Shown here piece by piece: positions 646 through 15,878 of a stretch of DNA of 64,000 nt (the first letter of the stretch is position 1; each line of letters starts with the position of its first letter). Below the pieces are notes generated by a model. That model was not told where the DNA came from and ran no database searches. It worked only from the letters and a program-made list of their open reading frames with translations. Location: the sequence record PX068455.1, one strand, 5' to 3'. Source of the stretch: a phage. A program made the translations under genes and the position numbers.

Positions 646-663
646 AAAGATGATAAGCCATGA

Positions 664-1504: not shown

Positions 1505-1532
1505 ACAAAAAGAAAGGGGCCTTTAAGCCCCT
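1505..1532 (-). terminator. Rho-independent terminator closing the minus-strand early array
   Basis: Hairpin aggggc-ctttaa-gcccct followed on minus strand by TTCTTTTTG; lies just 3' of the 1552 stop. Confidence 0.55.
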
Positions 1533-1551
1533 TGATAATTCAGTTAAGAAA

Positions 1552-1971: not shown

Positions 1972-2115
1972 GGTGTTTTTACCTCTTAGTTAATTTTCTT
2001 ACAACTTCCCTTCAAAAAAGAATATAGCAAAACTGCCGATCCCTGTCAACCAGGGATAGCATAATTTTTATGTGATCAAGGGGCTTTATTGCCCCTGACC
2101 ATGTAACTTGTTGTA

Positions 2116-2379
2116 TTATTTGTTGCTCATCCAGTTTTCCCAAGCTGCCTGATAATCTGCCTCACTACGGCGGATCTCTTCTTGCTCTTCAAGGCGGATC
2201 TCTTCTTCCAGGTACCCCAAGATGTCAGCCTTTTTAGTCTGGCGTAGCATCCAGTCATCTTTTTTGCGAGTGAAGATCTTATAAGCTTTCTCGCAAACCT
2301 CTTTTTTGCTACCTTTCTGGACTTCAAGAACACGATAAGCCATATATTGAACTAATTTGAGCTGATCAAGACGTTTCAT
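2116..2379 (-). CDS. hypothetical protein (87 aa)
   Basis: ORF track; upstream TTGAAT-N17-TAAGAT promoter, GGGCC-aaaa-GGCCC leader hairpin, SD AAAGAGG. Confidence 0.5.
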   Translation of the reverse strand: MKRLDQLKLVQYMAYRVLEVQKGSKKEVCEKAYKIFTRKKDDWMLRQTKKADILGYLEEEIRLEEQEEIRRSEADYQAAWENWMSNK

Positions 2380-2439
2380 GATGTTTACCTCTTTGTGCGG
2401 TTCTGATTAGTGGGCCTTTTGGCCCGTGTCATTATCTTA

Positions 2440-2712
2440 TTACTTATGGCGGCAGAATTCAAGCGTTTTTAATTGATAATCTTCCTCAGCCTGGAGTACG
2501 ACCGCCTCGATCATTTCGTTGGCATTGTTAAAGCCATAACCTTTAGCGAACTCATCCGCGCCACCTTCGTGATCATGTTCTGCGTTCATCGCTTCCACAA
2601 AATGGAATTCCAAATTGTTGAGGTAGGGGCTTGATGTTCCGTCCTCTTTTTCGATGAGATCCCAAATAGCATTAAAACGTGATTCGACTTCTTGATTAAT
2701 CCAGCTTGACAT
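2440..2712 (-). CDS. hypothetical acidic protein (90 aa)
   Basis: ORF track; preceded by promoter, hairpin and SD AGGAGAGAGG. Confidence 0.5.
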   Translation of the reverse strand: MSSWINQEVESRFNAIWDLIEKEDGTSSPYLNNLEFHFVEAMNAEHDHEGGADEFAKGYGFNNANEMIEAVVLQAEEDYQLKTLEFCRHK

Positions 2713-2766
2713 AGTGTTTTCCTCTCTCCTGGTTGTTGTGTGGGCACTTTTGCCCCTTCAAGATAA

Positions 2767-2795
2767 ATGTTACCTCACCCCATGGCAGATGTCAA
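2767..2795 (-). promoter_or_regulatory. sigma70-like promoter TTGACA-N17-TAACAT
   Basis: Hexamers read on minus strand upstream of the 2712 start; coordinates approximate. Confidence 0.45.
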
Positions 2796-2826
2796 CGGTT
2801 TTTATAGTTCTTATATGACAGGCAGG

Positions 2827-2843
2827 CCCGGTGATTGTCTCCC
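2827..2843 (-). repeat. Third copy of core motif GGGAGACAAyCACCGGG (minus orientation)
   Basis: Plus strand reads cccggtgattgtctccc, the reverse complement of cores at 12321 and 12455; intergenic. Confidence 0.5.
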
Positions 2844-2929
2844 CCTGTTCCCAAGTGCCGCCCGTTTAATAAGAATAGCAAAAGGGGCCGAACAAGTCAA
2901 CCCCAAAATCAGTACCAAAACACTTTTAT

Positions 2930-3241
2930 TTATACGGTCCGATCATTGGCCTTTGTCCAGGACCTGGCGATCCGTTTCCCGGTCACCTGGAACGGAGGCT
3001 GCATTGTGTGTAATGAGTCCAGAGTAAGGGAGGACCGTTTACGGCGTATCTTCAGGATCGCTAACGTATTGTCCATCTCACGGCCAGGTCCTGGGCGGTA
3101 TGGTGTGCCTCCAGCGTTAAGGTTGATGATCTCATGTATTGAGATCCGGCGTTGTTTTGCTTCCGCATCTTTGAAGATAGCCAGCGGAGGCGCTATGCGT
3201 TGCCGATACCAATCTAAAACGGTTGGCGTAATAGCGATCAT
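2930..3241 (-). CDS. hypothetical protein (103 aa)
   Basis: ORF track; start overlaps upstream stop (ATGA coupling). Confidence 0.4.
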   Translation of the reverse strand: MIAITPTVLDWYRQRIAPPLAIFKDAEAKQRRISIHEIINLNAGGTPYRPGPGREMDNTLAILKIRRKRSSLTLDSLHTMQPPFQVTGKRIARSWTKANDRTV

Positions 3242-3429
3242 ATTTTACCCCCTATGTAGTCCGGTCGGTTTTTCTCTGTCATACGCTTAAGCAATTCTTG
3301 CATGTTGCTTATGGCTTGTAGTGTATCCTCTTCAAGGGATGAATCAAGATAATCAGGATCATTCTTCACCTTGCAATGATTATGATAACGCAGTACCGCC
3401 AGTACTTTTTTAACTTCTTCCGCTGTCAT
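3238..3429 (-). CDS. hypothetical protein (63 aa)
   Basis: ORF track; co-directional, coupled to downstream ORF. Confidence 0.45.
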   Translation of the reverse strand: MTAEEVKKVLAVLRYHNHCKVKNDPDYLDSSLEEDTLQAISNMQELLKRMTEKNRPDYIGGKI

Positions 3430-3437
3430 TATCGCGC

Positions 3438-3572
3438 CTAAAACAATGAGTTAATATATAACACCAGATCGCTGACTACCAGGACAACATTAATCAGCAC
3501 ATACCTAACCATAAAGGGAAAGATCGCCAACATTGCCGCCACGATCCCCATGGTAATAATTATCTTTCTCAT
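3438..3572 (-). CDS. small hydrophobic protein (44 aa), not in ORF track
   Basis: ATG 2 nt after upstream stop; translation MRKIIITMGIVAAMLAIFPFMVRYVLINVVLVVSDLVLYINSLF read manually; no clear SD. Confidence 0.3.
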   Translation of the reverse strand: MRKIIITMGIVAAMLAIFPFMVRYVLINVVLVVSDLVLYINSLF

Positions 3573-3574
3573 GG

Positions 3575-3859
3575 TTAACGGTTCACGTAAGTTTTCCCGT
3601 TCACGGTTATGGGCAGATCCTCCAGGTCTGGATCTTCCTTAAGGTCGCGAGCAAGCTCACCGCACCGGATACCCTCGAATCCGTAGTACTCTGTTGTGCC
3701 GTCCTTAAAAGTTTTAGCGGCAAGGCATAAGCGATAAGTAACCCCGATTTGATTGACGGCATGAATATCCGTTAGATTAACCTCTTTTGCCAGCTCTTTA
3801 GCCATTACAGGCGCATTAAGTCCAACAACCAGGGTAACCACTGCGATCATCTTTTTCAT
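3575..3859 (-). CDS. secreted protein with N-terminal signal peptide (94 aa)
   Basis: MKKMIAVVTLVVGLNAPVMA signal-peptide-like N-terminus. Confidence 0.5.
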   Translation of the reverse strand: MKKMIAVVTLVVGLNAPVMAKELAKEVNLTDIHAVNQIGVTYRLCLAAKTFKDGTTEYYGFEGIRCGELARDLKEDPDLEDLPITVNGKTYVNR

Positions 3860-3950
3860 TGTGTCTATCCTCTTTCTGCTACGTTTAAGGCGGCGGTAAC
3901 CGCCTGTTTATGCTTTGTTGGTTAATTTTCAGGTATCTGTATAAATTAAA

Positions 3951-4166
3951 CTATGCTGTACGCTCAACTATAACAACGGTTTGGGGGATCTCCCCTTCCA
4001 CCACTAGTAAGGCCTTTTTCTGCGTGATAGATATCTTTACCCGTTGCAGCGTGGCGGTGAAGTCTTTCATTTCGTCACGCGGTGTTTTAGTGCAGTACCA
4101 GATCTCAGGCTTGCCGATCTGTAAGTTGCGTAAAAATTCCGTTTTGCCTGTTTTGTTAGTGATCAT
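3951..4166 (-). CDS. hypothetical protein (71 aa)
   Basis: ORF track; consistent with minus array; antisense ORF 3910..4302 rejected. Confidence 0.45.
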   Translation of the reverse strand: MITNKTGKTEFLRNLQIGKPEIWYCTKTPRDEMKDFTATLQRVKISITQKKALLVVEGEIPQTVVIVERTA

Positions 4167-4175
4167 TTGCCAACC

Positions 4176-4280
4176 TCACCCGATACCGTTGGAAGACAAG
4201 ATCATATTAGACATGGTTGCAATCAGGCCAATACCCAGGGCAATAACCAAGATCACTGCATCGATTAATTTCTGTTTCAT
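4176..4280 (-). CDS. small membrane peptide (34 aa), not in ORF track
   Basis: MKQKLIDAVILVIALGIGLIATMSNMILSSNGIG read manually; stop 9 nt before next ATG. Confidence 0.3.
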   Translation of the reverse strand: MKQKLIDAVILVIALGIGLIATMSNMILSSNGIG

Positions 4281-4357
4281 GGTGTTTATTCTCTTCTGTT
4301 AGTAACCTTATTCATGGGGCCGCTACCACAGCCCCAGGGTAAGGCAGCTATGTGCTT

Positions 4358-4603
4358 TTAGTGTTTCATTCCAACCATCGCGGCACGGATCGCCGTAGTG
4401 CTGTACTTGAAGCCGTCCGGGGTCTTATCTTGTCCGGTTAGCTCCAGAAAAAGCATCATATCCCGCGCCGCATCATTACGATTAGCATTGGCGTTAATAA
4501 AGCCTTGGGCCAACCGGTACAATGACTCATCGTTATTAATCCAAAGGCTTACATTCCAATGAGTTTTGTTTTTGTAACCGTTATAACCTTTATTGCTTTT
4601 CAT
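4358..4603 (-). CDS. hypothetical protein (81 aa)
   Basis: ORF 4358..4684 trimmed to internal ATG (residue 28) preceded by SD AAGAGG; TTGACA-N17-CATAAT promoter and GC hairpin lie inside the longer ORF. Confidence 0.5.
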   Translation of the reverse strand: MKSNKGYNGYKNKTHWNVSLWINNDESLYRLAQGFINANANRNDAARDMMLFLELTGQDKTPDGFKYSTTAIRAAMVGMKH

Positions 4604-4690
4604 GGTGTTTACCTCTTCTTTGTTCCAGGTGGCGGACCATTCCACCGCCTTATGTATTATGCTTTGTAAGATGGCTGTTGTCAAACTATT

Positions 4691-4870
4691 TTAACGATAA
4701 TCATCGTACGCTTTATTAACCTGGCGGATATAACATTCAAAAGCCAGATCAATAGATTTATATTCACGGATATACTCACCATAGGAAACCACATACATTT
4801 CTATAGCTTCCTCATATGCGAGGAGAATAGAATCTAAGCCTACGATCTCAGTCTTTGCAATAATAGCCAT
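4691..4870 (-). CDS. hypothetical protein (59 aa), below ORF-track threshold
   Basis: ATG preceded by SD AGAGGAT; MAIIAKTEIVGLDSILLAYEEAIEMYVVSY... read manually. Confidence 0.4.
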   Translation of the reverse strand: MAIIAKTEIVGLDSILLAYEEAIEMYVVSYGEYIREYKSIDLAFECYIRQVNKAYDDYR

Positions 4871-4945
4871 GATTTTTATCCTCTTTGTAGTTGGTGGGGT
4901 TCGTTGCCCCCTTTGATTTATATATTACAGTCTTATATGGTCATG

Positions 4946-5179
4946 TCAACTATTTTCAAAAAATTTTTCTGCTGTGATATTCTTCCCGGTAGGGTTCGCT
5001 ACTTTCAAAATTTTATCATGCACTGGACGCCCAAAAGAATAAGCGCCGTACACAGTAAACCAATAATCGCCGTCAGGTTGTACTATTACTGCCGCATATG
5101 GTACGCCTTTTTCGTTTTTGCTGACAAAATAGATCACGTTGCCATTAATAGCCTCGGCGCGTTTAATTTGTTCCATCAT
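4946..5179 (-). CDS. hypothetical protein (77 aa)
   Basis: ORF track; SD AGAGAGG upstream; antisense 4904..5245 rejected. Confidence 0.5.
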   Translation of the reverse strand: MMEQIKRAEAINGNVIYFVSKNEKGVPYAAVIVQPDGDYWFTVYGAYSFGRPVHDKILKVANPTGKNITAEKFFENS

Positions 5180-5234
5180 GATGATTTGCCTCTCTTTATT
5201 TTCATAATTGGGGGCCTTTTCGGCCCCGCCAGGT

Positions 5235-5519
5235 TTATTTATTGATAGCGTGCAGCGGGAAAGCTACGCCAGGTTGATAAATAACCTTTACAACCTCATC
5301 AGGACAAAAGAAGTTGCAGAACTCACCGCAATAGGCCTCATCCTCTTTCAACTCTTCATCAACATACTCAAAAAAGTAGTCGATGCTTGGATAATCCTGG
5401 CCGTGATTATAGTCAACCATCGTTAATAATAACTCTTGATCATTCCGTAGGATGTGCATACCCGCTTTTAAGTATTTTGCTTCCATTTCTACTACATTGC
5501 CAGCGGTAACAATAGCCAT
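5235..5519 (-). CDS. hypothetical acidic protein (94 aa)
   Basis: ORF track; co-directional. Confidence 0.5.
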   Translation of the reverse strand: MAIVTAGNVVEMEAKYLKAGMHILRNDQELLLTMVDYNHGQDYPSIDYFFEYVDEELKEDEAYCGEFCNFFCPDEVVKVIYQPGVAFPLHAINK

Positions 5520-5721
5520 GATTTTAACTCCTATCTATCTGGTCAACGATTGGGGGCCTCCCCCTCGACAACTCTTATTATCCATATTGTCGGGAATGAT
5601 GCAAGTACTTCTTTAAAAATTTTTTAAGCGCCCCGTATGCCGTTGTAACGCCAAAATAATAAAGGCCATGCAACCGCATGGCCTTTATGTGATTATATTG
5701 CTGTAGGCCCTGCCTGGGGCC

Positions 5722-6072
5722 TTATTTTGCATTCTTGCCTGTATTGCCGCCACGGTACCAGCGTTTGCGGTGAAAATGGTAATAATCACCCTCGGCATTA
5801 AACATCAGATGATTTTCAATAACCAGCTTACGAAGGTGGGCCGGATCTTGTTCCATTCTTGCCAGATTCCGGCGGCTGTTACGTAAGCGTATAAATTCCA
5901 TATTCAGGCCGTTGATTGCAGCATGGATGTCAAAGTAACCACCTTTGAGACGTTCACGCATGGCGTTAAGCTCAACACAATATACAGATTTCTCACAAAT
6001 CAAGGTATTAGCTAGGGCGCGGACCTGGGCAAGGGGGTTAAGCTCATTAAGGTAATATAGTTTGACTTTCAT
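5722..6072 (-). CDS. hypothetical protein (116 aa)
   Basis: ORF track. Confidence 0.5.
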   Translation of the reverse strand: MKVKLYYLNELNPLAQVRALANTLICEKSVYCVELNAMRERLKGGYFDIHAAINGLNMEFIRLRNSRRNLARMEQDPAHLRKLVIENHLMFNAEGDYYHFHRKRWYRGGNTGKNAK

Positions 6073-6089
6073 AAAATCGCCTGCTGAAA

Positions 6090-6410
6090 TTAGTTTGAGA
6101 AAACATCGTTCACAATAGCGATCACAATGCCGCCCACCTTGTCACGGTCAGCAATGCACAAATCACCATGGATCATGCGGTAGTCTGGATGATCTTTCAC
6201 AGAATAGTCAATAAGTGTTTTCTTGTCGTCCAGCTTCGTAACTTCCATTCTCATAACGATATGAGAATCATCAAAGGCATTATTCCGAAAAGTCATAGCC
6301 TGACCGCCAGGGCACCCGGTGATCTCAACTTCCACGCCGTCTACGATCTGACCATCAAAGAAATAGAGATTATTGGCGGGTATAAACATGATCATTGCTC
6401 CTTTTTGCAC
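6090..6410 (-). CDS. hypothetical protein (106 aa)
   Basis: ORF track; preceded by SD AAAGGAG and conserved 45-bp module. Confidence 0.5.
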   Translation of the reverse strand: MQKGAMIMFIPANNLYFFDGQIVDGVEVEITGCPGGQAMTFRNNAFDDSHIVMRMEVTKLDDKKTLIDYSVKDHPDYRMIHGDLCIADRDKVGGIVIAIVNDVFSN

Positions 6411-6433
6411 TGATTATTTTAACAGGGTTTAAA

Positions 6434-6478
6434 TTTACTTTATTGATGGCCCTGGAGTCAAGGCCATCTAAAAATAAA
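6434..6478 (-). promoter_or_regulatory. Conserved 45-bp promoter/operator module, copy 1
   Basis: Identical 45-mer in 3 copies; minus strand reads TTGACT within inverted repeat GATGGCC..GGCCATC, then TAAATT 18 bp downstream. Confidence 0.5.
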
Positions 6479-6480
6479 TT

Positions 6481-6681
6481 TTACAGATCTACAATCTCTT
6501 TAATTCGTTTTACTGCTGCCTCAGCGCCTTGAGGGTAGAAATTATGATAACCAATCACGCGGGTAATACTGATCGCCGCTTGGTGGTCCTCGTAGTCGCC
6601 TTTGAATATTTCTTGACCATCAACCAGCACAGCAATTTTTTCTTCTTTTTTGAAGTTAATAACGCGGATATTGTTGCTCAT
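6481..6681 (-). CDS. hypothetical protein (66 aa)
   Basis: ORF track. Confidence 0.45.
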   Translation of the reverse strand: MSNNIRVINFKKEEKIAVLVDGQEIFKGDYEDHQAAISITRVIGYHNFYPQGAEAAVKRIKEIVDL

Positions 6682-6780
6682 TTTGTTTCTCCTTTTGGAA
6701 CTTTGTCTGTGTGGTGGGGAGTGTCTCCCCGTTGATTGTTATTATCCATATTCTGGACCGGATTGCAACACTCAGGAAGA

Positions 6781-6826
6781 AAAATTTTTTGAAAAAAGTT
6801 AGGCCCCCAGGGATCGGGGGCCGTTA
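6781..6826 (-). terminator. Rho-independent terminator
   Basis: GGCCCCC-gatccct-GGGGGCC hairpin followed on minus strand by TAACTTTTTTCAAAAAATTTTT. Confidence 0.55.
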
Positions 6827-6946
6827 TCAGTTGCTTACAGCGATAAAATACATCCCTACGCCTAACAATATTTCAAGGGCGATGATCTCAAGCCATACCA
6901 TAACACGGCGCGCCTTATCGGTGCGGGGCTTATCCTTGGTTGTCAT
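6827..6946 (-). CDS. small membrane peptide (39 aa), not in ORF track
   Basis: ATG preceded by GGGGGAG; MTTKDKPRTDKARRVMVWLEIIALEILLGVGMYFIAVSN read manually. Confidence 0.3.
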   Translation of the reverse strand: MTTKDKPRTDKARRVMVWLEIIALEILLGVGMYFIAVSN

Positions 6947-7055
6947 CGTCTCCCCCTTCCCTCCTGCTAGCAGTTACGTGGTTTGCAATGGCCCCCAGTA
7001 GTCCGATCACGACACACATCGCAAGAAAAATTATCTCTCCCGTTGTTCGATCCAT
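6930..7055 (-). CDS. small membrane peptide (41 aa), internal start of ORF 6930..7115
   Basis: Internal ATG with SD GAGAGG; hydrophobic IIFLAMCVVIGLLGAI; longer form would start at GTG without SD. Confidence 0.25.
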   Translation of the reverse strand: MDRTTGEIIFLAMCVVIGLLGAIANHVTASRREGGDDDNQG

Positions 7056-7165
7056 TGTTATAAAACCTCTCAAGATCAGGCCTAAAAGTAAATCTTTCGT
7101 TATTGAATCCGTCACGCCAGGCGGCTGGCTTCAAATCTTCACTAAATGGATTAATTAACGTGGCA

Positions 7166-7537
7166 TTATTTAAACGGTTGGCCCACATATTTTCTATTCC
7201 TCTCAAATAAGCGATCCGCCTCAGTTAAACAAATCTCATGGGCGTGATCTCTGGTTTTAGCTTCATCGAAAACCTGTTGTGCAAGGCTGCAACGTAGGGA
7301 GACTGGGAGATCACTATAATAGGCGTTGACAAACGTTTGAGCGTCGTACAGGTCTGAAAATACTTTACCCTTTCTATTATTCCCCTTGTCAACAATTGCA
7401 AGGATAACCAATACAATAGTTGCAACCACCCCCAGGAAAATAGATATAATAAACCATAAAAAGGCGGATCTCCCCATCTTGCCAGCGATCCAGGCGTTAA
7501 ACAAGGCAACCAATATAGCCAAAATAATAAATTCCAT
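7166..7537 (-). CDS. membrane protein (123 aa)
   Basis: ORF 7166..7570 trimmed to ATG (residue 12) with SD AAGAGG; two hydrophobic helices (MEFIILAILVALFNAWIAG, FLWFIISIFLGVVATIVLVILAIV). Confidence 0.5.
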   Translation of the reverse strand: MEFIILAILVALFNAWIAGKMGRSAFLWFIISIFLGVVATIVLVILAIVDKGNNRKGKVFSDLYDAQTFVNAYYSDLPVSLRCSLAQQVFDEAKTRDHAHEICLTEADRLFERNRKYVGQPFK

Positions 7538-7601
7538 TCTATGTACCTCTTTTACAGTTCTGATCAACAATAAGGCGGCAAATATGCCGCCTGTTACCTG
7601 A

Positions 7602-7982
7602 TTAAAAATTATCGCCGTAAATCTTTCCGCTTTCTACCCATACCACCACGCGAGGCATACTATCCCACACGTCTTGTTTTAGATTGAGCGCGTGCAATTC
7701 TTCGGTGGTGCTCATACCGGGCACGGGCTGATTGTATACTGCAAAACGACCACCCGCATAATCATAGGCCAGGGTTAAATCACACTGGATCATCTTTTTG
7801 ATCATGGCATTAAGCATGGCGTTAGCCGCATACTGATCACGTTTTAAAGGCAACTCTTTGATTAGTTTGCGATAGTTTTCGATATGGTCGCACACTGTTT
7901 CACGCGGAAGATCTTTCATATCTTCACGGAATGTAACCAGGTTAAACATAACGGTGTCAATAGCCTTGGTAGTGGTTTTCAT
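7602..7982 (-). CDS. hypothetical protein (126 aa)
   Basis: ORF track; own promoter and leader hairpin. Confidence 0.5.
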   Translation of the reverse strand: MKTTTKAIDTVMFNLVTFREDMKDLPRETVCDHIENYRKLIKELPLKRDQYAANAMLNAMIKKMIQCDLTLAYDYAGGRFAVYNQPVPGMSTTEELHALNLKQDVWDSMPRVVVWVESGKIYGDNF

Positions 7983-8035
7983 GATTTTATCCTCTTTGTT
8001 TTGTGTGGGGCAAGACGTTTGCCCCTTGAGTTTTT

Positions 8036-8063
8036 AATATAGCAGGTTTTTAGATTATTGCAA
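8036..8063 (-). promoter_or_regulatory. sigma70-like promoter TTGCAA-N16-TATATT
   Basis: Read on minus strand; followed by leader hairpin GGGGCAAACGTCTTGCCCC, SD AAGAGGA and the 7982 start. Confidence 0.5.
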
Positions 8064-8071
8064 CACTTTAT

Positions 8072-8695
8072 TTATGAAAAACTCATCTCCCCATATTCAT
8101 CCACATCAAACCGCCAATCATTGGCCTCGATAAGGCCGATCAAGTATTCTGCGGTGAACTGTTCTAGATAGGCCTCCTCCAGGTCTACGTAAACCTTGCG
8201 GGATAGCTCCCGTACCGTCTCGGTGATCAGTTCTTCCAGGTCTTCCACTTTGTTTTCTTGTTTGGCGGTCAGATCTAGCCAAGTGGTATCAATGTACCCG
8301 CTTACAGTGTTTTCATGGCTGTAATGGCTGTACTTGTCGCGTTCAACACTGGCTGATAACTCGCCATCGTGCATTGTGCCGAACAAGTGACGAATTGATC
8401 TGAACTTGGTCAGGGCCTTGACTTTACGCAAAAATTTTTCTAAATCCACGTTTTCAGCACTGATTGACGCGCCGTCACCCTGGCACCAAAAGCCGGACCA
8501 ATGTACTTCGGTATCTTCAAGGCCGTACTCTGGAAAAACTTGTTCTTTATAGTATTCAATTACATTTTCTGCGAAAAAATCATCCCCGCTGCGTTCTTCT
8601 CTTTCGCGGACCATTTCAATGGCTTTTTCTTTTTGTTCGTCGGTTAGCACGTCGAAAGATAAATTGTAACCTGTGGTAATGTTAACGGTGGTCAT
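8072..8695 (-). CDS. hypothetical acidic protein (207 aa)
   Basis: ORF track; high Asp/Glu content; function unknown. Confidence 0.55.
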   Translation of the reverse strand: MTTVNITTGYNLSFDVLTDEQKEKAIEMVREREERSGDDFFAENVIEYYKEQVFPEYGLEDTEVHWSGFWCQGDGASISAENVDLEKFLRKVKALTKFRSIRHLFGTMHDGELSASVERDKYSHYSHENTVSGYIDTTWLDLTAKQENKVEDLEELITETVRELSRKVYVDLEEAYLEQFTAEYLIGLIEANDWRFDVDEYGEMSFS

Positions 8696-8752
8696 GATAT
8701 TTTCTCCTGTTTTCTTTGTTAGTGGCGGGAAGTTTTCCCGCCTGTGTGTTTA

Positions 8753-8780
8753 ATTATACTTATTGAGATTTACTTGTCAA
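8753..8780 (-). promoter_or_regulatory. Consensus sigma70 promoter TTGACA-N16-TATAAT
   Basis: Perfect consensus hexamers on minus strand; -35 overlaps last codons of upstream gene; followed by hairpin GGCGGGAAAACTTCCCGCC and SD AGGAG. Confidence 0.6.
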
Positions 8781-9030
8781 CACTATTTTTTAAATTATTG
8801 TGGCGCAAAATGTTTAAAATCTCCTCAACGTCATCAACACGGCGGCAATTTTTAAACGCTACCAATTGCCCCATGATTTTAATCACTGGGCGGCCTTGCC
8901 AGTGACCCTGGAGAAAGCGCGCCTTGACTTTATCGGTGGAACTATCACGCCACCAAATAGCCTTGTTGTTGCAGTAGTAAAAATTATTCAGGATAACATC
9001 AACTTTATCAAAATTTTTTAATTTACGCAT
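8770..9030 (-). CDS. hypothetical protein (86 aa)
   Basis: ORF track; own promoter upstream. Confidence 0.5.
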   Translation of the reverse strand: MRKLKNFDKVDVILNNFYYCNNKAIWWRDSSTDKVKARFLQGHWQGRPVIKIMGQLVAFKNCRRVDDVEEILNILRHNNLKNSVDK

Positions 9031-9062
9031 GGCGTTTACTCCTTTCTCTCTTTGATGTGGTT

Positions 9063-9090
9063 AGTATAGCTAACCTGTTGACGATGTCAA
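9063..9090 (-). promoter_or_regulatory. sigma70-like promoter TTGACA-N16-TATACT
   Basis: Read on minus strand upstream of the 9030 start. Confidence 0.55.
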
Positions 9091-9210
9091 TGATATTTTT
9101 AACGCCATAAAACGGCCCTGGGCGATGTTTTCAGGTTAAGGGGGGCGATTGCATAGGTGGGGGCCTTTTTGGCGCTTACAGGGCCAACCAGGGGCGCTAT
9201 TAGTAGGATA

Positions 9211-9240
9211 GAAATAAAAAGCCCCGCACAATGGCGGGGC
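9211..9240 (-). terminator. Rho-independent terminator
   Basis: Perfect 7-bp stem GCCCCGC/GCGGGGC followed on minus strand by TTTTTATTT, directly after the 9249 stop. Confidence 0.6.
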
Positions 9241-9248
9241 GTTGGTTG

Positions 9249-9446
9249 TTATTTGTCTTTATGGCGATATCGTTCTGCCTGTCGTTCACGTTCCAAAAGT
9301 AGGCCGGGCAATTTACGATCATAATGATTGCGCCAGATCTTCCCAAACCTTTTTGGCTTATTCAGTTTATTGTTACGCTGGCGGCGTTCTGGCAGCTCTT
9401 CGGAATCATGAGGGCGCTTTACAATTTTCTCGAAATTAATTTTCAT
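9249..9446 (-). CDS. small highly basic protein (65 aa), possible nucleic-acid binder
   Basis: ORF 9249..9470 trimmed to internal ATG (residue 9); Arg/Lys-rich. Confidence 0.4.
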   Translation of the reverse strand: MKINFEKIVKRPHDSEELPERRQRNNKLNKPKRFGKIWRNHYDRKLPGLLLERERQAERYRHKDK

Positions 9447-9789
9447 ATCTTCCCCCCTTGCTAACTTCAATATTGGCCTGAATAGCCCGGATGCGGCGCT
9501 TTATAACTTCCTGATCTGTGTGGTCGTATCCCCAAAAGTCTACAATTTTTGCGCCACCCGCTTCCAGGCGGTATAGTGTTTCCTGCATTTTGTAAGCCGG
9601 GATCGGTCGCGGTGTTACTTGGTCGCCTTCTTTATTTTTATACTTTATAATATAATCTTCGTTATCGTTGAATGCCCAAAATGGATATTCTGCAAGGGCG
9701 GTACTTCCTCTTTCCTTTTTATCCTGGATCTTATTTACAATTAAAGCCGTAGCAATAGCGCCAATAATAAAACTAGCCCCGCTAATCAT
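9436..9789 (-). CDS. membrane-anchored protein (117 aa)
   Basis: N-terminal hydrophobic helix ISGASFIIGAIATALIV. Confidence 0.5.
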   Translation of the reverse strand: MISGASFIIGAIATALIVNKIQDKKERGSTALAEYPFWAFNDNEDYIIKYKNKEGDQVTPRPIPAYKMQETLYRLEAGGAKIVDFWGYDHTDQEVIKRRIRAIQANIEVSKGGRYEN

Positions 9790-9865
9790 GTGTACTTTCT
9801 CCTTTCATGGTGTTAATAAATTATCTTTATAGATGGCCCTGCAACCAGGACCACCGAAAAAATAA

Positions 9866-10111
9866 CTATTTCACAATGCCTACAAAACAGATCCCGCCTT
9901 CACCTATGTAAGCAATATCGGTAACTTTATAATTTGTCAAGATCTGTTTATTTAGTTCATTAATAAAATCGGTCATTGCGTTGGTGTAGTTGTCTTCCAT
10001 ATCTAAGGCATAATCCCAGGCGTAAGCCTTTTTACGTCCGAAGCCTTTTACCATGATACGGGCGCTTTTGGTGTTGGTGGGCGCATAATATTTGGTGATT
10101 AGTGCTGCCAT
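9866..10111 (-). CDS. hypothetical protein (81 aa)
   Basis: ORF track; preceded by 45-bp module copy 2 and SD GAGGAG. Confidence 0.5.
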   Translation of the reverse strand: MAALITKYYAPTNTKSARIMVKGFGRKKAYAWDYALDMEDNYTNAMTDFINELNKQILTNYKVTDIAYIGEGGICFVGIVK

Positions 10112-10151
10112 GGTTTTAACTCCTCATTAGTTCAGTGTTAACAGTGTAAAG

Positions 10152-10196
10152 TTTACTTTATTGATGGCCCTGGAGTCAAGGCCATCTAAAAATAAA
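10152..10196 (-). promoter_or_regulatory. Conserved 45-bp promoter/operator module, copy 2
   Basis: Identical to copies at 6434 and 10773; TTGACT-N18-TAAACT on minus strand. Confidence 0.5.
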
Positions 10197-10197
10197 T

Positions 10198-10539
10198 TTA
10201 CTCGTTTTCTTCCAGCTCTGAAAGCTCTTCTTTCACTTCTTCGAGCTCTGTCTGCAATTCTTGGTACTCTTCATCGTCCTCAATATCCAGGCTGTCGATG
10301 TAGTCGCTAAATCCGCAGCGGTAAGCGATAGGATCTAGCTCCTTGAGGATACGCGACGGAAGAAAAGAAATGTTTCCGATCATAATTTCGCCGTAGATCT
10401 CGTCTAACCATTCATCATAGTTTTCGTCGTACTTGTCCTCGTCGATTTCAAAGTTATCGATCTTGTTCTCAAGGTCTGCGATCTGTTTTTTCAGCGCGGC
10501 GATCTGCATAGCTTTTTCTGCGGCGGTCATAGTAGTCAT
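10198..10539 (-). CDS. highly acidic coiled-coil protein (113 aa), possible DNA mimic
   Basis: Very high Asp/Glu content (EEVKEELSELEENE tail); own promoter and leader hairpin. Confidence 0.5.
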   Translation of the reverse strand: MTTMTAAEKAMQIAALKKQIADLENKIDNFEIDEDKYDENYDEWLDEIYGEIMIGNISFLPSRILKELDPIAYRCGFSDYIDSLDIEDDEEYQELQTELEEVKEELSELEENE

Positions 10540-10590
10540 GGTGTTTTCTCCTTTTGTGTGTTCTGGGAAGTTTTCCCGTTTACGTGTTTA

Positions 10591-10618
10591 AGTATACCGA
10601 TTTGGGTTAGCTTGTCAA
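10591..10618 (-). promoter_or_regulatory. sigma70-like promoter TTGACA-N16-TATACT
   Basis: Read on minus strand; followed by hairpin GGGAAAACTTCCC and SD AAAGGAGA. Confidence 0.55.
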
Positions 10619-10738
10619 TTAAAAATTTAAGAAAAATTTTGCAAAACTGTTGGCGCTACTCATTAACATTTGCGCCAGGATGTAACCGACAACGCAAACG
10701 ATAATAGTTACCTTTGTGTATTGGCGTGTAGTGCTCAT
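10619..10738 (-). CDS. small membrane peptide (39 aa), not in ORF track
   Basis: ATG preceded by AAAGGGGG, just downstream of module copy 3; MSTTRQYTKVTIIVCVVGYILAQMLMSS... read manually. Confidence 0.35.
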   Translation of the reverse strand: MSTTRQYTKVTIIVCVVGYILAQMLMSSANSFAKFFLNF

Positions 10739-10772
10739 CTTAAAGCCCCCTTTTTCGCTTAGTTGAGACTAG

Positions 10773-10817
10773 TTTACTTTATTGATGGCCCTGGAGTCAA
10801 GGCCATCTAAAAATAAA
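10773..10817 (-). promoter_or_regulatory. Conserved 45-bp promoter/operator module, copy 3
   Basis: Identical 45-mer; TTGACT within inverted repeat GATGGCC/GGCCATC. Confidence 0.5.
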
Positions 10818-10818
10818 C

Positions 10819-11223
10819 TTAGTAAGTTTTCAGTACTTTACCGTCCAACCTGTCAAGCTGGATCTCGATAGCTGCAGAAAACCTATTGTACACCACGTCG
10901 CCCATAGAATCCAACCAATCTATGACGTTATACACCTGCTCTTTGTTCTTACAGGTCCGGATCCGTTTCATGATGTAAGCCGGATCAATATTGGTACTCT
11001 CGTCGGTGTTCCCCTGTACCTGGTTTGCCGTATTAGTTACATCTTTAATGGCCTTTACCACCACCTGGAAGGGCTTTAAGGTACCTTTTGCGTTCATCTC
11101 ACGCGCTTTTGCGGCGCGGTTGTTATATGTTACACAACGGCGGCAAATGTTGATCAAATGCATGTCAATAATTTTTTCATCGTTTGCCAGTTCATTCATG
11201 ATGCGGCGTACGTTCTTATTCAT
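10819..11223 (-). CDS. hypothetical protein (134 aa)
   Basis: ORF 10819..11322 trimmed to ATG at residue 34; the in-frame upstream part contains promoter and leader hairpin. Confidence 0.5.
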   Translation of the reverse strand: MNKNVRRIMNELANDEKIIDMHLINICRRCVTYNNRAAKAREMNAKGTLKPFQVVVKAIKDVTNTANQVQGNTDESTNIDPAYIMKRIRTCKNKEQVYNVIDWLDSMGDVVYNRFSAAIEIQLDRLDGKVLKTY

Positions 11224-11272
11224 GATCTTTTTTCCTTTGTGTTGGCGGGAAACATTCCCGCCTTTTGTGCCC

Positions 11273-11300
11273 AGTTTACTTGAATTTTGCAGCGTGTCAA
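11273..11300 (-). promoter_or_regulatory. sigma70-like promoter TTGACA-N16-TAAACT
   Basis: Read on minus strand; followed by hairpin GGCGGGAATGTTTCCCGCC and SD AGGAAAAAAG. Confidence 0.5.
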
Positions 11301-11306
11301 CAATTT

Positions 11307-11705
11307 TTATTCGTGGGCGCATGTTACAATGTGCTTTTTATAGCCCAGGCGGTCAGCAAGTGCCGACAAAAACTCTTCTTCGTAGATCCAGCCGTCGGCA
11401 GTGATCCCCATAGCATTTAATGCGCTCTCAAGTGCTGCGTTGGCTTTATCATAACCGTGACCGCTCGCCTTGCCTCCAGTATAGCCGTACTTATTGTTCT
11501 TGTTGTCGTGTATCCAAAAAACGCAGTAGTGAGTGTTCCCGCTGGCGGCGGCATAATACCGGATCTCAGCTACTTCGTGCAAATTATTGTCATCGTCCAG
11601 GCCCACCAGATTATAAGCCTTGTAAAATCCACGATCACGGCGGCAGTTCTTGACATCAGAAAAAGAAAAGTCCGCATTATCAAAATTAAAGGTAGTGGTT
11701 TTCAT
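11307..11705 (-). CDS. hypothetical protein (132 aa)
   Basis: ORF track. Confidence 0.5.
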   Translation of the reverse strand: MKTTTFNFDNADFSFSDVKNCRRDRGFYKAYNLVGLDDDNNLHEVAEIRYYAAASGNTHYCVFWIHDNKNNKYGYTGGKASGHGYDKANAALESALNAMGITADGWIYEEEFLSALADRLGYKKHIVTCAHE

Positions 11706-11769
11706 GATTTTATCCTCTTAGTGTCTTTTGTGCTTTTAGTGTATTTGGTGTCGGACTGTATGTCAATAC

Positions 11770-11967
11770 TTATTTTTTATTAAACCAGTGGTTGATCTGG
11801 CCTTTTGTCAGGGCGCAACGATTAAGCTGTTGCCGAGTATAGCTCTGACCGCGACGGAATTTATAAAGGCCTTGCCCGTTGTTGATGGTTACATCCACCC
11901 GGCAAACCATTTGATCGGTGACCACCTGGCGAGTGTTGCGACGTACTTTGATTCCGTAGGCGTTCAT
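11770..11967 (-). CDS. small basic protein (65 aa)
   Basis: ORF track; SD AGAGAGGAT upstream; weak TTGACA-N17-TATTCT promoter. Confidence 0.45.
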   Translation of the reverse strand: MNAYGIKVRRNTRQVVTDQMVCRVDVTINNGQGLYKFRRGQSYTRQQLNRCALTKGQINHWFNKK

Positions 11968-12320
11968 GATTTTTTATCCTCTCTGTTAATTGGTGTGGTG
12001 TTGTTCACCTTGCGAGGATAAGAATAACAATAACTGTACGAGCTGTCAACCATTAGTTAGAATTATTTTTTTTGGGCAGAATTCTCCAGCCGCCGCCCCT
12101 ACCAGGTTAACCATCGTTTTTTCGTACTCTTCTTTATGTTCCAACGCTCCCGCCATAGCCTTTTCAACCAGGGCGATAGCCTCAGCGTCATTAATCGCTA
12201 CATTTCCAGGGGATCAAATTACCTTTCATTTTTGTACCTCCTCTTCAATTGTTACCTGCCCTATAGCATAGGCCTACCAGGTTTGCAAGCTTTCACTCTC
12301 ACGGCAGGCACCGGTGACGG

Positions 12321-12372
12321 GGGAGACAACCACCGGGGATGGGCGCTGCATAAAATGAGAACGGTTATCATT
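12321..12372 (+). repeat. Bipartite repeat unit A: core GGGAGACAACCACCGGG plus GAGAACGGTTATCATT
   Basis: Read directly; core sits inside palindrome CCGGTG..CACCGG; gene-free region. Confidence 0.5.
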
Positions 12373-12454
12373 ATCATTTAAAAATTTATGCAAAAAATCC
12401 TTGCTTTCTTTGTCCTGTGTGATACTATAATAACAAGCCGGGGCAACAGGGGCC

Positions 12455-12508
12455 GGGAGACAATCACCGGGGGTGCCCGTTATTCTGCAAACGAGAATGA
12501 TTATCATT
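12455..12508 (+). repeat. Bipartite repeat unit B: core GGGAGACAATCACCGGG plus GAGAATGATTATCATT
   Basis: Second copy ~134 bp after unit A with the same ~20-bp core-to-module spacing. Confidence 0.5.
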
Positions 12509-12638
12509 CAAAATTCTAAATGAGAACTTTTCGCATTTCATAAATTTAGTTAGCATGCTAATTACCTACCGTGACAATTCTATATAAAATAATACCTCCT
12601 TAAATATTTCCATATACAAATTTTAAAAATCCATTTCC

Positions 12639-12802
12639 GAAAACGAAAAATCGATTTCGTCCCCAAAAATTTCAGGTCGAGCTCCGGAACGATTTCCAGA
12701 AAATCTGATTCAGAAAACGAAAAACAGATCGAGTACTAAGAAATTTATCGAGAAAAATTTTCAGAAAATTCAATCTTTGAAACGAAAAACAGATCGAGTA
12801 CT
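12639..12802. repeat. Iteron-like direct repeats ACGAAAAACAGATCGAGTACT
   Basis: Two exact 21-bp copies (~12717 and ~12782) plus a partial copy (~12639), in AT-rich non-coding DNA. Confidence 0.55.
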
Positions 12803-13040
12803 GAGAGAGATGTATCAAAACCTACTGAGAATAATGGGCTTATTGTTATAAAAGGTCAAAGGTAAGCTGGGAAAGTTCTGGTAGAAGGGTGAGGGTATGT
12901 GCGGAAAATCTGGAATAGTAACTTAAAGTACGGTGCGAACGATAGAATGAGCAGCACATCTTATCGCGCCTGTCTTGAAAAATCCATTTTAGTTTTCGAT
13001 CCATTTTCTGATTTTCTAAGAATTTTAAAATATCCGGCCA

Positions 13041-13082
13041 GGTAAAATATCAAAAGGAGGAAATCCATTTTAGAAATCCTCC
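13041..13082 (-). terminator. Rho-independent terminator
   Basis: GGAGGA..TCCTCC hairpin followed on minus strand by TTTTGATATTTT, ~30 nt after the 13114 stop. Confidence 0.45.
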
Positions 13083-13113
13083 TTATACTTGATGTGCCAG
13101 GGATTTTCAAGTA

Positions 13114-13443
13114 TCAACTGTCTTTGTTTTTAGGCTTGTGCATACGTAGAGGTATGGTCTTTATAACATTCCATCTACCCAACCCCTCCCAGTTCCAATT
13201 GTGAGCGTGATACCCGGTTATGCATGCACTGCTGGCGTGATCATAAGCATAAGAGAACGCTATGCGAACCAAGTGGGGCCAGTCCCTCCACGGCTGTGGA
13301 CCGTAAGCCTTCCTCCAACACCGACACAAACTAATTGTCTCAAGAATAGGTAGAATAACAAATCCATATACCGCCACCAAAATGGTCAGAGCAATGATTG
13401 TCAGGAATACATACCCTGCAGTTGAAATAATGATCTCTGTCAT
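13114..13443 (-). CDS. membrane protein (109 aa)
   Basis: Hydrophobic N-terminal segments (FLTIIALTILVAVYGFVILPIL). Confidence 0.5.
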   Translation of the reverse strand: MTEIIISTAGYVFLTIIALTILVAVYGFVILPILETISLCRCWRKAYGPQPWRDWPHLVRIAFSYAYDHASSACITGYHAHNWNWEGLGRWNVIKTIPLRMHKPKNKDS

Positions 13444-13643
13444 TTGTCATCCCCTTTCTTACGGATATAGATGTGAGAGCCTGCTTGTACATAAATTTCC
13501 AGACCATCTTCTGCAAAGATGTGGAATACACGGTCGCCTTCGTATTCAATACGGGATATCTTCATAACGGTCTTCCCACCCGGAATGCGGATCTCATCAC
13601 CCACAGCAATGTTCCATGCAGATTTAAGCTTAAACATCTGCAC
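13440..13643 (-). CDS. hypothetical protein (67 aa)
   Basis: ORF track; ATGA overlap with downstream gene. Confidence 0.45.
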   Translation of the reverse strand: MQMFKLKSAWNIAVGDEIRIPGGKTVMKISRIEYEGDRVFHIFAEDGLEIYVQAGSHIYIRKKGDDK

Positions 13644-13875
13644 CCTCCTTTGGGAGCTCTAACTCTGGCATAGCCATATACGCCACAACAGGGTTGTAAT
13701 CAAAGTAGAAATGACCGTTAATTATCCCAGTTTTGTGGGCATAGTCACCAGATCCTGCAAGAACAATCTCGCAAACTCCGAAATCCACCTTGCCATTCTC
13801 ATCTGCCATGGCTACAATATACTTTCCTAGAGGCATGTTTTTAACGCCGTCTACAAATGTCCACCCTTTGTTCAT
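13630..13875 (-). CDS. hypothetical protein (81 aa)
   Basis: ORF track. Confidence 0.45.
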   Translation of the reverse strand: MNKGWTFVDGVKNMPLGKYIVAMADENGKVDFGVCEIVLAGSGDYAHKTGIINGHFYFDYNPVVAYMAMPELELPKEGADV

Positions 13876-13895
13876 ACTTTATCTCCTGCACTTTC

Positions 13896-14228
13896 TTAAG
13901 GTAACCAGTAAACAATTTCGCCTTTCAGTTCCATGTCGTTACCGACATAGATTTTCCAGCCATCCATTTTAGCCACTGCAGGAGTGAAGTCCGTAGAACC
14001 ACTAACCTCTTTCCAAGTCCCGTAGTCAGGTTGCCAGATATAGAATCCACCTTCCTTGTCCCATGCTCCATATACCACATCGAGCAGGTTGCCCATTGCA
14101 ACAATAGTAGGCCGTGGGAATAATACATCTACAGATGCGCCACAATTTCGGGTAGATTTTAAATTACAATCCCAAAAGATGTCTGCCAGTGTGGCGGCGA
14201 TAGCTTTACGTCTTTCTAATGTTACCAT
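13896..14228 (-). CDS. hypothetical protein (110 aa)
   Basis: ORF track. Confidence 0.5.
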   Translation of the reverse strand: MVTLERRKAIAATLADIFWDCNLKSTRNCGASVDVLFPRPTIVAMGNLLDVVYGAWDKEGGFYIWQPDYGTWKEVSGSTDFTPAVAKMDGWKIYVGNDMELKGEIVYWLP

Positions 14229-14238
14229 GGTACGATAC

Positions 14239-14430
14239 TCACTTGTTGTTAAGAAGTTCTAAAACTTTCTGTTTTACTTTATCAAGGTCTGTTGATTCAA
14301 AAACTGTGCGATATCCCCAACTTTGCCCATAGGAATGACTGCAATCCCCGTAACACCATTGCTCAACTTGATAGTATTCAAGGAATGGGTGCTGTCTAAC
14401 TATGATGCCGTCTCGATTAAAAATTACCAT
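14239..14430 (-). CDS. hypothetical protein (63 aa)
   Basis: ORF track. Confidence 0.4.
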   Translation of the reverse strand: MVIFNRDGIIVRQHPFLEYYQVEQWCYGDCSHSYGQSWGYRTVFESTDLDKVKQKVLELLNNK

Positions 14431-14493
14431 AATTTATCCCTCTCTGCTAGTCTATGTTTGTATTATATACTGCAGTTTTCAGATGTCAACCTT

Positions 14494-14688
14494 TTACAGG
14501 TTACTCCAGTATAATCGGCATTTGCATTTTGGGCAATGAGGTTCTTTTATGTAGTAACCATCAGTCTTTGGAACACTTTTTGGTGCAGTTTTAAGATTGT
14601 ACCGAGTAAAGCACCGGAAGCAGGTTACCTCTCCTACCTGTTGATCGTTTATCCACTCACCAGAGTAAAGCTCTTTCTTGTTTCTCAT
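14494..14688 (-). CDS. zinc-ribbon-like small protein (64 aa)
   Basis: ORF 14494..14745 trimmed to ATG with SD GGGAGA; CxxC..(27)..CxxC pattern. Confidence 0.45.
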   Translation of the reverse strand: MRNKKELYSGEWINDQQVGEVTCFRCFTRYNLKTAPKSVPKTDGYYIKEPHCPKCKCRLYWSNL

Positions 14689-14690
14689 AA

Positions 14691-14885
14691 TTATCTCCCT
14701 AGTCCTCTGCAATCTTCTACCAGAATCTCCAGCCAGAAAGCACACGGGAACACTTTGAGGATTGAATCTTTACTCGGCTCGGAAGTTCTTTTTCCATAGG
14801 GCAGGTAGAAATACCCTCCTGCAGATTCAAACATGGCTCCTTCTGTTGTATCTATCACAGCTAGAATTAGGATTTTAGTCTCCAT
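14691..14885 (-). CDS. hypothetical protein (64 aa)
   Basis: ORF track; abuts downstream gene. Confidence 0.4.
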   Translation of the reverse strand: METKILILAVIDTTEGAMFESAGGYFYLPYGKRTSEPSKDSILKVFPCAFWLEILVEDCRGLGR

Positions 14886-14939
14886 AGTGCTCCCCTGTCT
14901 TAATCGTTGTGGTGACTATACCACCTTAAAATATAGCTG

Positions 14940-15398
14940 TCAACACCCTTTGTACTCCACCACGATAATATCTATATCAAAAGTGGCAAGGTTAATAATG
15001 TCCTCTACATGTTCCCACTTCAAACCGCCTATGCCGCACCCGATCTTAGGGATGTAGAATGGTAAAATCGACCCCTCAAATACTTCATTGACTCGCTCAA
15101 ATCCTTTCAGTATTGAGAAATATTCAGCATTAGGTCCTGGATAGAACTGAGTATACAGATTTATTCCGTAGACAATACCTCTCGGAGATAAGTGCTCCCA
15201 ACGGGAGAACGCGCCCAGTTTACTTAGGCAACCGTGCATAGTCATTTTATCAGCTTCCAATGCTTGAGGGAATTCACGAGCAATCTGCTTTGCTACACCC
15301 TTCCCCATTGTGTGGAAGCAGTTACAACCGTGGATCAGGTGACCAGCACCGCTCTTAAAAAGGGAGATTAAATCTCCCTCTACAGTATCAATAATCAC
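14940..15398 (-). CDS. macro-domain (ADP-ribose-binding/processing) protein
   Basis: VEGDLISL..GAGHLIHGCNCFHTMGKGVAKQIAREFP resembles macro-domain signature; GTG start with SD AGGAG chosen, 11-nt overlap with upstream gene. Confidence 0.55.
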   Translation of the reverse strand: MIIDTVEGDLISLFKSGAGHLIHGCNCFHTMGKGVAKQIAREFPQALEADKMTMHGCLSKLGAFSRWEHLSPRGIVYGINLYTQFYPGPNAEYFSILKGFERVNEVFEGSILPFYIPKIGCGIGGLKWEHVEDIINLATFDIDIIVVEYKGC

Positions 15399-15813: not shown

Positions 15814-15878
15814 CGTAGTTCTCCAGGATCAATAGGTGGTGCTACAGGAAGATCATAAAACATGGCGATCACATTCTC

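Follow-up and report, generated by a model that had tools for sequence, protein, structure and literature searches.

A repeated intercistronic module, a candidate processing hairpin with an overlapping promoter-like sequence, in the early region of rV5-like phages

Why is one 45-bp sequence kept letter for letter at three places in the early region of a phage genome, each time between two small genes? The question is raised by phage sequence record PX068455.1, of which one stretch of 64,000 nucleotides (nt), referred to as the window, was analysed. A first-pass annotation of the window had read the repeat as a promoter whose -35 hexamer is overlapped by an operator-like dyad, so that the three downstream genes may share one regulator. 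The analysis reported here favours, with a probability of roughly 55%, a composite intercistronic cassette that resembles the promoter-early stem-loops (PeSLs) of T4-like phages and combines an RNA hairpin, likely of RNase III type, with an overlapping putative promoter. From its conservation and architecture the element, referred to as the module, is most likely a processing or insulation hairpin of the sense RNA; RNase III as the specific enzyme is put at even odds, and a weak early promoter, judged from sequence, probably overlaps the hairpin.

The repeat and its sense-strand helix

A search of the window located the exact 45-mer at 6434-6478, 10152-10196 and 10773-10817, as the first-pass annotation had it; no additional match was present in the window at up to three mismatches, and none of 100 shuffled sequences held any match. 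A fourth, 73%-identical copy at 9818-9868, overlooked in that annotation, was detected with a repeat finder. A covariance model (CM) built from the module family found only these four copies in the window (81.4, 80.9, 80.1 and 69.9 bits for copies 1 to 4); the other 73 kb of the 137-kb genome yielded no match. All four are contained in 4.4 kb and sit between small genes without a Pfam function; each is on the coding (minus) strand, beginning 0-2 nt past one stop codon and ending 35-45 nt ahead of the next start codon. The placement just upstream of a minus-strand gene start, remarked on earlier, was thus borne out, and the copies adjoin the stop codon of the preceding gene as well. The copies are as follows.

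6431..6481, minus strand: module copy 1, a 51-nt sense-RNA hairpin with an ACUC loop, starting at the stop codon of gene 6481-6681
10149..10199, minus strand: module copy 2, directly past the stop codon of gene 10198-10539
10770..10820, minus strand: module copy 3, directly past the stop codon of gene 10819-11223
9819..9867, minus strand: module copy 4, diverged, with a GUUG loop, 3' of the stop codon of gene 9866-10111

As sense RNA, every copy was predicted to adopt one 51-nt fold consisting of a 10-bp AU-rich lower stem whose outermost pairs include the stop codon, an internal loop with 2 nt on the 5' side and 3 nt on the 3' side in all four copies, a 10-bp GC-rich upper stem and a tetraloop. 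The perfect 7-bp inverted repeat of the first-pass annotation was present, and pairing reached beyond it: the upper stem was made up of this repeat plus U.G, U-A and G-C pairs, with one G.U, and together with the lower stem the element spanned about 51 nt. Minimum free energies (MFEs) of the sense RNA ranged from -22.4 to -25.9 kcal/mol (z -5.8 to -7.6) and those of the antisense RNA from -8.1 to -18.5 kcal/mol. Sense values were -23.6 (z -5.8), -23.0 (z -6.5) and -25.9 kcal/mol (z -7.6) for copies 1, 2 and 3, respectively, and copy 4 gave -22.4 kcal/mol for the sense against -8.1 kcal/mol for the antisense strand.

All copies from 18 genomes or contigs were compared, giving 45 distinct sequences. 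Across these variants 97.4% of 900 pair cells were paired, a value that fell to 35-58% when the 3' partners were slid by one to three columns. Two-sided changes were seen at four lower-stem pairs (A-U/G-C/G.U, U-A/C-G/U.G, U-A/A-U and A-U/U-A), and the one-sided changes of the upper stem (A-U to G.U, C-G to U.G, U.G to C-G and G-C to G.U) all still paired on the sense RNA. Cells that departed from Watson-Crick pairing on the sense strand comprised 114 G.U and 12 A.C, and the helix that was 97.4% paired in the sense was 86.1% paired in the antisense orientation. Divergence from the window amounted to 1.1% at non-loop positions of the module, 12.8% in the apical loop and about 20% in the immediate flanks, and the protein encoded just downstream of the module was 83-98% identical across records. 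Copy 4 kept the entire helix, with extra G.U pairs, without a -35-like hexamer and with GATAAT at the -10 position, and its loop varied freely (GUUG, GCUG, GUAG, GUAA and GUGG). The loop of copies 1-3 always opened with AC, which supplies positions 4-5 of the -35 hexamer, save in one rearranged contig variant (GATAAC). On this comparative evidence the dyad behaves as a helix of the sense transcript, because its imperfections are almost all G.U, its changes are compensatory and its MFE is lower in the sense than in the antisense orientation.

From 6000 to 11200 the window matched Escherichia phages ECP2303 and ECP2309 at every position (100% identity), and more than 100 rV5-like phages (genus Vequintavirus) shared 93-97% identity with it; window numbering equals that of PP464953.1, at least across the region studied. 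Positions 1-22000 are occupied by densely packed small minus-strand genes without assigned function and constitute the early ORFan region. When the 45-mer was looked for in related genomes, the module was recovered from 121 phage records, usually as three BLAST-detectable copies. A scan of positions 1-22000 against Rfam gave no match at the modules at E-values up to 1, and a pattern scan of IMG/VR with CAGGGCCATCNATAAAG returned just two rV5-like contigs, the other 15 loci being single chance matches. The module was also absent from complete E. coli genomes, and is therefore not derived from the host or from its repetitive extragenic palindromic (REP) elements. The module is real, and as a regulatory repeat it is strongly conserved and confined to the genus. 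The rV5 genome paper (Table S4) does not have it among its 33 promoters and 20 terminators. In the Murica annotation copies 1 and 4 are 45-bp 'terminators', in the Gotham annotation copy 1 is a 'promoter' (PhagePromoter), and in EdH4 and isim the modules carry no annotation.

Single copies were damaged or rearranged in some genomes, for which genuine decay and assembly error are both possible. Copy 3 of Gotham (L003, 648-690) had a 5-nt deletion and had lost its 3' arm, copy 1 of C9 (L033, 9740-9790) was without the 3' arm of the lower stem and the '-10', and a contig variant (L015, 2775-2821) carried the 5-nt loop (GATAAC).

Promoter-like elements and recombination joints

The promoter-like features of the modules, and the early promoters with which they were compared, are listed below.

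6456..6461, minus strand: putative -35 hexamer TTGACT of copy 1, TTG being part of the upper stem and ACT of the loop
6432..6437, minus strand: putative -10 hexamer TAAATT of copy 1, in the 3' arm of the lower stem
10150..10179, minus strand: putative promoter of copy 2, TTGACT-N18-TAAACT, 9/12 match
10771..10800, minus strand: putative promoter of copy 3, TTGACT-N18-TAAACT, 9/12 match
10591..10618, minus strand: P10618, consensus early promoter TTGACA-N16-TATACT, driving the 113-aa gene upstream of copy 2
11273..11300, minus strand: P11300, early promoter TTGACA-N16-TAAACT, 10/12 and promoter-like, upstream of the gene that precedes copy 3

The TTGACT, 18-nt spacer and -10 hexamer described in the first-pass annotation were found on the minus strand, the -10 being TAAACT in copies 2 and 3 and TAAATT in copy 1. 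The interpretation offered in that annotation was supported in part: its promoter half is plausible and has comparative support (the replacement of a -10 in KKE7M and the TAAACT of resident promoters), but taken by itself the match is only 9/12 and of a class that is common by chance.

The comparative support comes from a promoter-to-promoter slot of phi92-like phages, which was empty in muut, held a cassette with a 72-aa open reading frame (ORF) in UAB_1, and held the rV5-derived 113-aa gene with a module in KKE7M. In this last phage, a Justusliebigvirus, a 468-bp, 98%-identical block (L025, 5581-6048) consisted of P10618, a hairpin of the 5' untranslated region (5'-UTR), the 113-aa gene and the module. 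P10618 formed the left end of the block and homology stopped exactly at the 3' end of the module, the left crossover lying in the spacer of the resident promoter and the right one in GTAAAYT. As read from these alignments, cassettes in this slot have clearly been exchanged at early promoters between phages of different subfamilies. Within the rV5-like group, contig L014 had a single module with the left flank of copy 3 and the right flank of copy 2, the intervening 621 bp being deleted. By the evidence of this chimera and of the KKE7M cassette, the modules and promoters act as crossover joints. Loops were identical in 54% of comparisons between paralogues within a genome vs 32% between orthologues, and this sharing suggests gene conversion among the copies. 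The evolved rV5 derivative ev146 lacked two early-region segments, of about 6.4 and about 0.5 kb; module-mediated deletion was rejected for it, the joints being at other short homologies (window positions ~9301/2836 and 11231/10726).

The same slot bears on the -10. In muut the empty site was an ordinary promoter, TTGACA-N16-TAAACT-ATATTCATTAA-hairpin-ribosome-binding site (RBS)-ATG, and in KKE7M the TAAATT of the module occupied exactly the position that the resident TAAACT had with respect to the 5'-UTR hairpin, RBS and gene that follow it. In UAB_1 a different cassette at this site ended in TTGCAA-N16(...AATAAAG)-TAAACT, and AATAAAGTAAACT was common to it and the module. Consensus early promoters of this phage group have TAAACT as their -10 (P11300 of the window, muut and UAB_1), and P11300 also carries ...AAGTAAACT. 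Among natural variants, the sixth base of the -35 took all four nucleotides and T6 of the -10 was rarely changed. The comparison thus shows homology between the module's 3' part and genuine -10 regions; that copies 1-3 function as promoters is plausible.

The clear early promoters of the phage match 10-12 of 12 consensus positions with 16-17-nt spacers and are followed by a GC hairpin in the 5'-UTR. Such units (P10618, P8780 and P11300) share with the module an A/T-rich upstream region, a TTGAC -35, a TAAACT or TATACT -10 and a similar downstream context (TAAACAC or AACCAC); they differ in that their hairpin stands downstream of the -10, whereas that of the module covers the promoter itself. 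The design was noted at five minus-strand sites (8715-8780, 10553-10618, 11244-11262, 8007-8025 and 4620-4684), where a TTGACA-N16/17-TATAAT-like promoter is followed, about 8-12 nt past the -10, by a short GC hairpin (e.g. GGCGGGAAAACUUCCCGCC) and then by an ACACAAA-type spacer and RBS. This promoter-hairpin-RBS layout is a conserved 5'-UTR arrangement, possibly a 5' stabiliser, and is used too by the phi92-like muut, UAB_1 and KKE7M.

Proposed role and competing explanations

From the repeats, the conserved and covarying sense-strand helix, the fixed positions relative to genes and the recombination joints, we infer a course of events that involves cleavage, promoter activity and an operon structure. 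Host RNA polymerase would read through from an upstream sigma70-type early promoter, and the 51 nt past the stop codon would fold into an interrupted helix of about 20 bp. Host RNase III would then cut the hairpin, or a related insulation or stabilisation step dependent on double-stranded RNA (dsRNA) would take place; cleavage by RNase III is considered the likeliest role because the geometry is that of the T7 early RNase III signals and there is no U-tract. The cut would separate the first cistron from the downstream cistron or cistrons, after which a hairpin would cap the 3' end of the upstream mRNA. Under this model, rnc-dependent 3' ends are predicted near ...GGCCAUCAAU and 5'-phosphate ends at AAAGUAAA..., for all four copies. 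In copies 1-3 the TTGACN-N18-TAAAYT sequence probably starts transcription anew for the downstream gene. That the copies are nearly identical would stem from this dual constraint, on RNA and promoter, together with gene conversion, and the deletions and horizontal transfers of early-gene cassettes that have the copies as joints would be a by-product. A more ambitious version, which we regard as tentative and rather improbable, is that a sigma70 promoter wholly inside an RNase III-cleavable hairpin makes a self-contained 'cut-and-restart' joint, where read-through RNA is cleaved and hairpin-capped while the same DNA restarts transcription for the next cistron.

Several observations weigh against the cassette model. 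The upper stem was near-invariant, independent covariation events were few and mostly reflected the split between copies 1-3 and the paralogous copy 4, the sequences compared were closely related, and the sense/antisense G.U bias came down to only about eight vs three column-level events. The invariant AC of copies 1-3 could be accounted for by either a promoter or a loop constraint. The promoter match was 9/12 with a suboptimal 18-nt spacer, in a class of which 80 members were found in 20 kb vs 44 expected. RNase III cleavage is argued only from architectural resemblance, because a literature search on Vequintavirus, rV5 and phi92 found no transcript maps and no transcript-end or cleavage data. 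Copy 2 of ECML-10 had T6 of the -10 changed (TAAACG), and Gotham copy 3 and C9 copy 1 were partly deleted, so that no single copy is essential.

Under the operator explanation of the first-pass annotation, a sigma70 promoter with its -35 under a DNA dyad (GATGGCC..GGCCATC) is controlled by a shared repressor that co-regulates the three downstream genes. The -35- and -10-like hexamers are there, copy 1 of Gotham was called as a promoter by PhagePromoter, and half-sites that are invariant around a centre variable at two positions are what an operator would look like. Yet the imperfections of the helix were nearly all sense-strand G.U pairs, accompanied by compensatory double changes, which a base-reading protein would not tolerate as neutral; conservation also covered the second, AU-rich 10-bp helix, which pairs the stop-codon region with the -10 region. 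In copy 4 the dyad persisted as RNA pairs, its DNA half-sites differing at 2/8 positions, with the -35 lost. No helix-turn-helix or other DNA-binding domain was found in the flanking genes, and one copy alone moved into another phage subfamily. The claim of an operator and shared regulator was accordingly not supported, and we consider it very unlikely.

An intrinsic (Rho-independent) terminator or attenuator of the upstream gene's transcript, as Murica annotates, is unlikely, although less so than the operator. A stable GC-rich hairpin immediately past a stop codon would suit it, as would the 45-bp Murica features at copies 1 and 4, and PeSL stem-loops lowered read-through in a reporter assay (PMC2839356). 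The intrinsic form was rejected for want of a U-tract 3' of the hairpin on either strand (AAUAAAGUAAA in the sense, UAAAAAUAAA in the antisense orientation); moreover, the modules were not among the 33 sites returned by a consensus terminator scan of 1-20000, were not so called in EdH4, Gotham or the rV5 paper, and showed selection on a second 10-bp helix formed from the flanks, which is no requirement of a terminator. Standing between these two in likelihood is the reading that the hairpin is no RNase III substrate but is bound by an RNA-binding protein of phage or host, such as one regulating the translation or stability of early mRNAs. The stem sequence is indeed nearer to invariant than pairing alone demands and the first loop nucleotides are conserved; but copy 4 had another loop and three differences in its 5' arm, the hairpin ended about 25-35 nt upstream of the downstream RBS without overlapping it, and no candidate was found among the proteins examined. 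Least probable of all is a selfish or neutral dispersed repeat (resembling a miniature inverted-repeat transposable element, or a recombination hotspot) without regulatory role and kept identical through gene conversion only. That copies sit at a deletion joint (L014) and a horizontal-transfer boundary (KKE7M), that paralogues share loops more often than orthologues, and that single copies decay in some genomes would all agree with it. Against this, in about 120 genomes conservation of the stems exceeded that of the flanks about 20-fold, with the apical loop free to vary, the structure of copy 4 was preserved without sequence identity, position and orientation were fixed relative to stop and start codons, and terminal repeats, target duplications and copies elsewhere in the genome were all absent. 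Hairpin promoters of the N4 type have a 5-7-bp stem and a 3-nt loop and require a virion RNA polymerase; this candidate was rejected, a gene for such a polymerase not being annotated in the genome.

If the cut-and-restart version holds, the module would be a portable joint by which early ORFan cassettes are swapped between unrelated myovirus subfamilies, Vequintavirinae and Stephanstirmvirinae, with neighbouring expression undisturbed. The combination of a hairpin and a promoter-like sequence would also account for a cassette transfer that was observed into a phi92-like phage. Biocontrol of E. coli O157 and phage therapy make wide use of rV5-like phages, whose early gene regulation is essentially unstudied; a hairpin at these sites offers a concrete, testable model for the subdivision of early ORFan operons. 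It would also carry over, to phages that are not T4-like, the concept behind the PeSLs, in which regulatory cassettes serve as recombination joints as well. The importance is moderate and of specialist interest, with no new kind of biology.

Neighbouring genes and likeness to known systems

The genes and terminator next to the modules are as follows.

10198..10539, minus strand: 113-aa ORFan (phrog_9294), travelling with the module in the mobile cassette
9866..10111, minus strand: 81-aa ORFan, with copy 2 upstream and copy 4 downstream
6090..6389, minus strand: 99-aa ORFan downstream of copy 1, confined to Vequintavirus
10619..10738, minus strand: 39-aa ORF (phrog_16391) downstream of copy 3
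9221..9240, minus strand: canonical terminator-like hairpin with U-tract, a terminator in the Murica annotation

The 99-aa ORFan was 83-100% identical among records and less conserved than the module; when it was used in tblastn searches for diverged orthologous intergenic regions, it proved genus-restricted. Distant homologues of the 113-aa gene, also sought by tblastn, sit in unrelated contexts. Scans for promoters and terminators placed each copy behind the first gene of a predicted unit, and the hairpin at 9221-9240 closes the unit predicted to run from P10618 through the 113-aa gene, copy 2, the 81-aa gene, copy 4 and a 117-aa gene to a gp1.1-like gene. This gp1.1-like gene (9249-9446, minus strand), the last of the predicted operon that holds copies 2 and 4, encodes a 65-aa protein matching Pfam PF08200 (bacteriophage T7 gene 1.1 protein) above the family cutoff (E = 2.6e-11); in T7 its counterpart, gene 1.1, sits after the R1.1 RNase III site.

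Elsewhere in the region, 934 bp without an annotated gene (12157-13090) contain direct repeats of about 55-65 nt (12626-12672, 12687-12741 and 12752-12806) and correspond to the 'non-coding' box of the rV5 map, which may be an origin, an iteron array or a non-coding RNA region. A 15-nt GC-rich sequence, CCGGTGRTTGTCTCC, occurred three times between genes, at 2828-2842 (plus strand), 12322-12336 (minus) and 12456-12470 (minus), with 0.01 occurrences expected by chance. Among the database records, 17 of the MG0656xx series ('Campylobacter phage', UNVERIFIED) are labelled as Campylobacter jejuni phages and are 93-96% identical to the E. coli rV5-like genome; others of the series match phi92-like phages, and the host labels look unreliable.

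For comparison with known RNase III signals, the T7 sites R0.3, R0.5, R1, R1.1 and R1.3 were folded at cleavage coordinates that we take to be those of Dunn & Studier 1983. The folds had the architecture of the module, with a 9-10-bp GC upper stem, a 4-5-nt loop, an internal loop of 1-2 by 3 nt and an AU-rich lower stem, at -21 to -26 kcal/mol. The reported T7 cut falls in the 3' side of the internal loop. Both the T7 sites and the module are intercistronic hairpins of coliphage early mRNAs, made by host RNA polymerase (transcripts of the module being predicted), and have an asymmetric internal loop, with AAU or UAU in both, and no U-tract; the predicted R1 fold has the same 2 by 3 nt loop. 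In T7, minor E. coli promoters adjoin some of the RNase III sites by annotation. Unlike the module, however, the T7 sites do not abut a stop codon, nor do they have a sigma70 promoter (putative in the module) inside the helix. When 7.6 kb of T7 were searched with the module CM, the best match was the R1 site, which at 13.7 bits and E = 1.2 is not significant and amounts to resemblance only; sequence and CM similarity being without significance, the likeness is one of predicted architecture alone. About 22 bp fit into RNase III, which is capable of single cuts (PMC6212723). The coaxial 10 + 10 bp stems of the module agree with an irregular dsRNA helix of about two turns (~20-22 bp), and its central, asymmetric internal loop agrees with the single-cut class of signals.

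The concept closest to the module is that of the PeSLs, which in T4-like phages unite an early sigma70 promoter with a stem-loop in one intergenic motif (Arbiol et al. 2010, PMC2839356). Their subclasses include stem-loops that overlap the -35 (PMC2839356), and they are concentrated in ORFan-rich regions, where they mediate modular shuffling (PMC2839356; Comeau et al. 2014, PMC4122927). Likeness was found in structure, position and recombination: PeSLs and the module are alike intergenic, in an ORFan-rich early region, present in several copies within a few kb, and composed of a sigma70-type promoter (putative in the module) and a stable stem-loop, and in both, ORFan cassettes are deleted, inserted or replaced by crossing over at the copies, as in the L014 chimera and the KKE7M cassette. 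They differ in that the PeSL promoter matches the consensus whereas that of the module matches at 9/12 with an 18-nt spacer, and in that the PeSL hairpin is short and built on G/C tracts whereas the module forms an interrupted helix of about 20 bp engulfing the whole promoter, from a T-run to the -10. The module copies, unlike PeSLs, are near-identical over 45 bp, and there is no sequence relationship between the two. The module is an analogue of the PeSL and not a member by descent, because the genome that carries it is that of a Vequintavirus and not of a T4-like phage.

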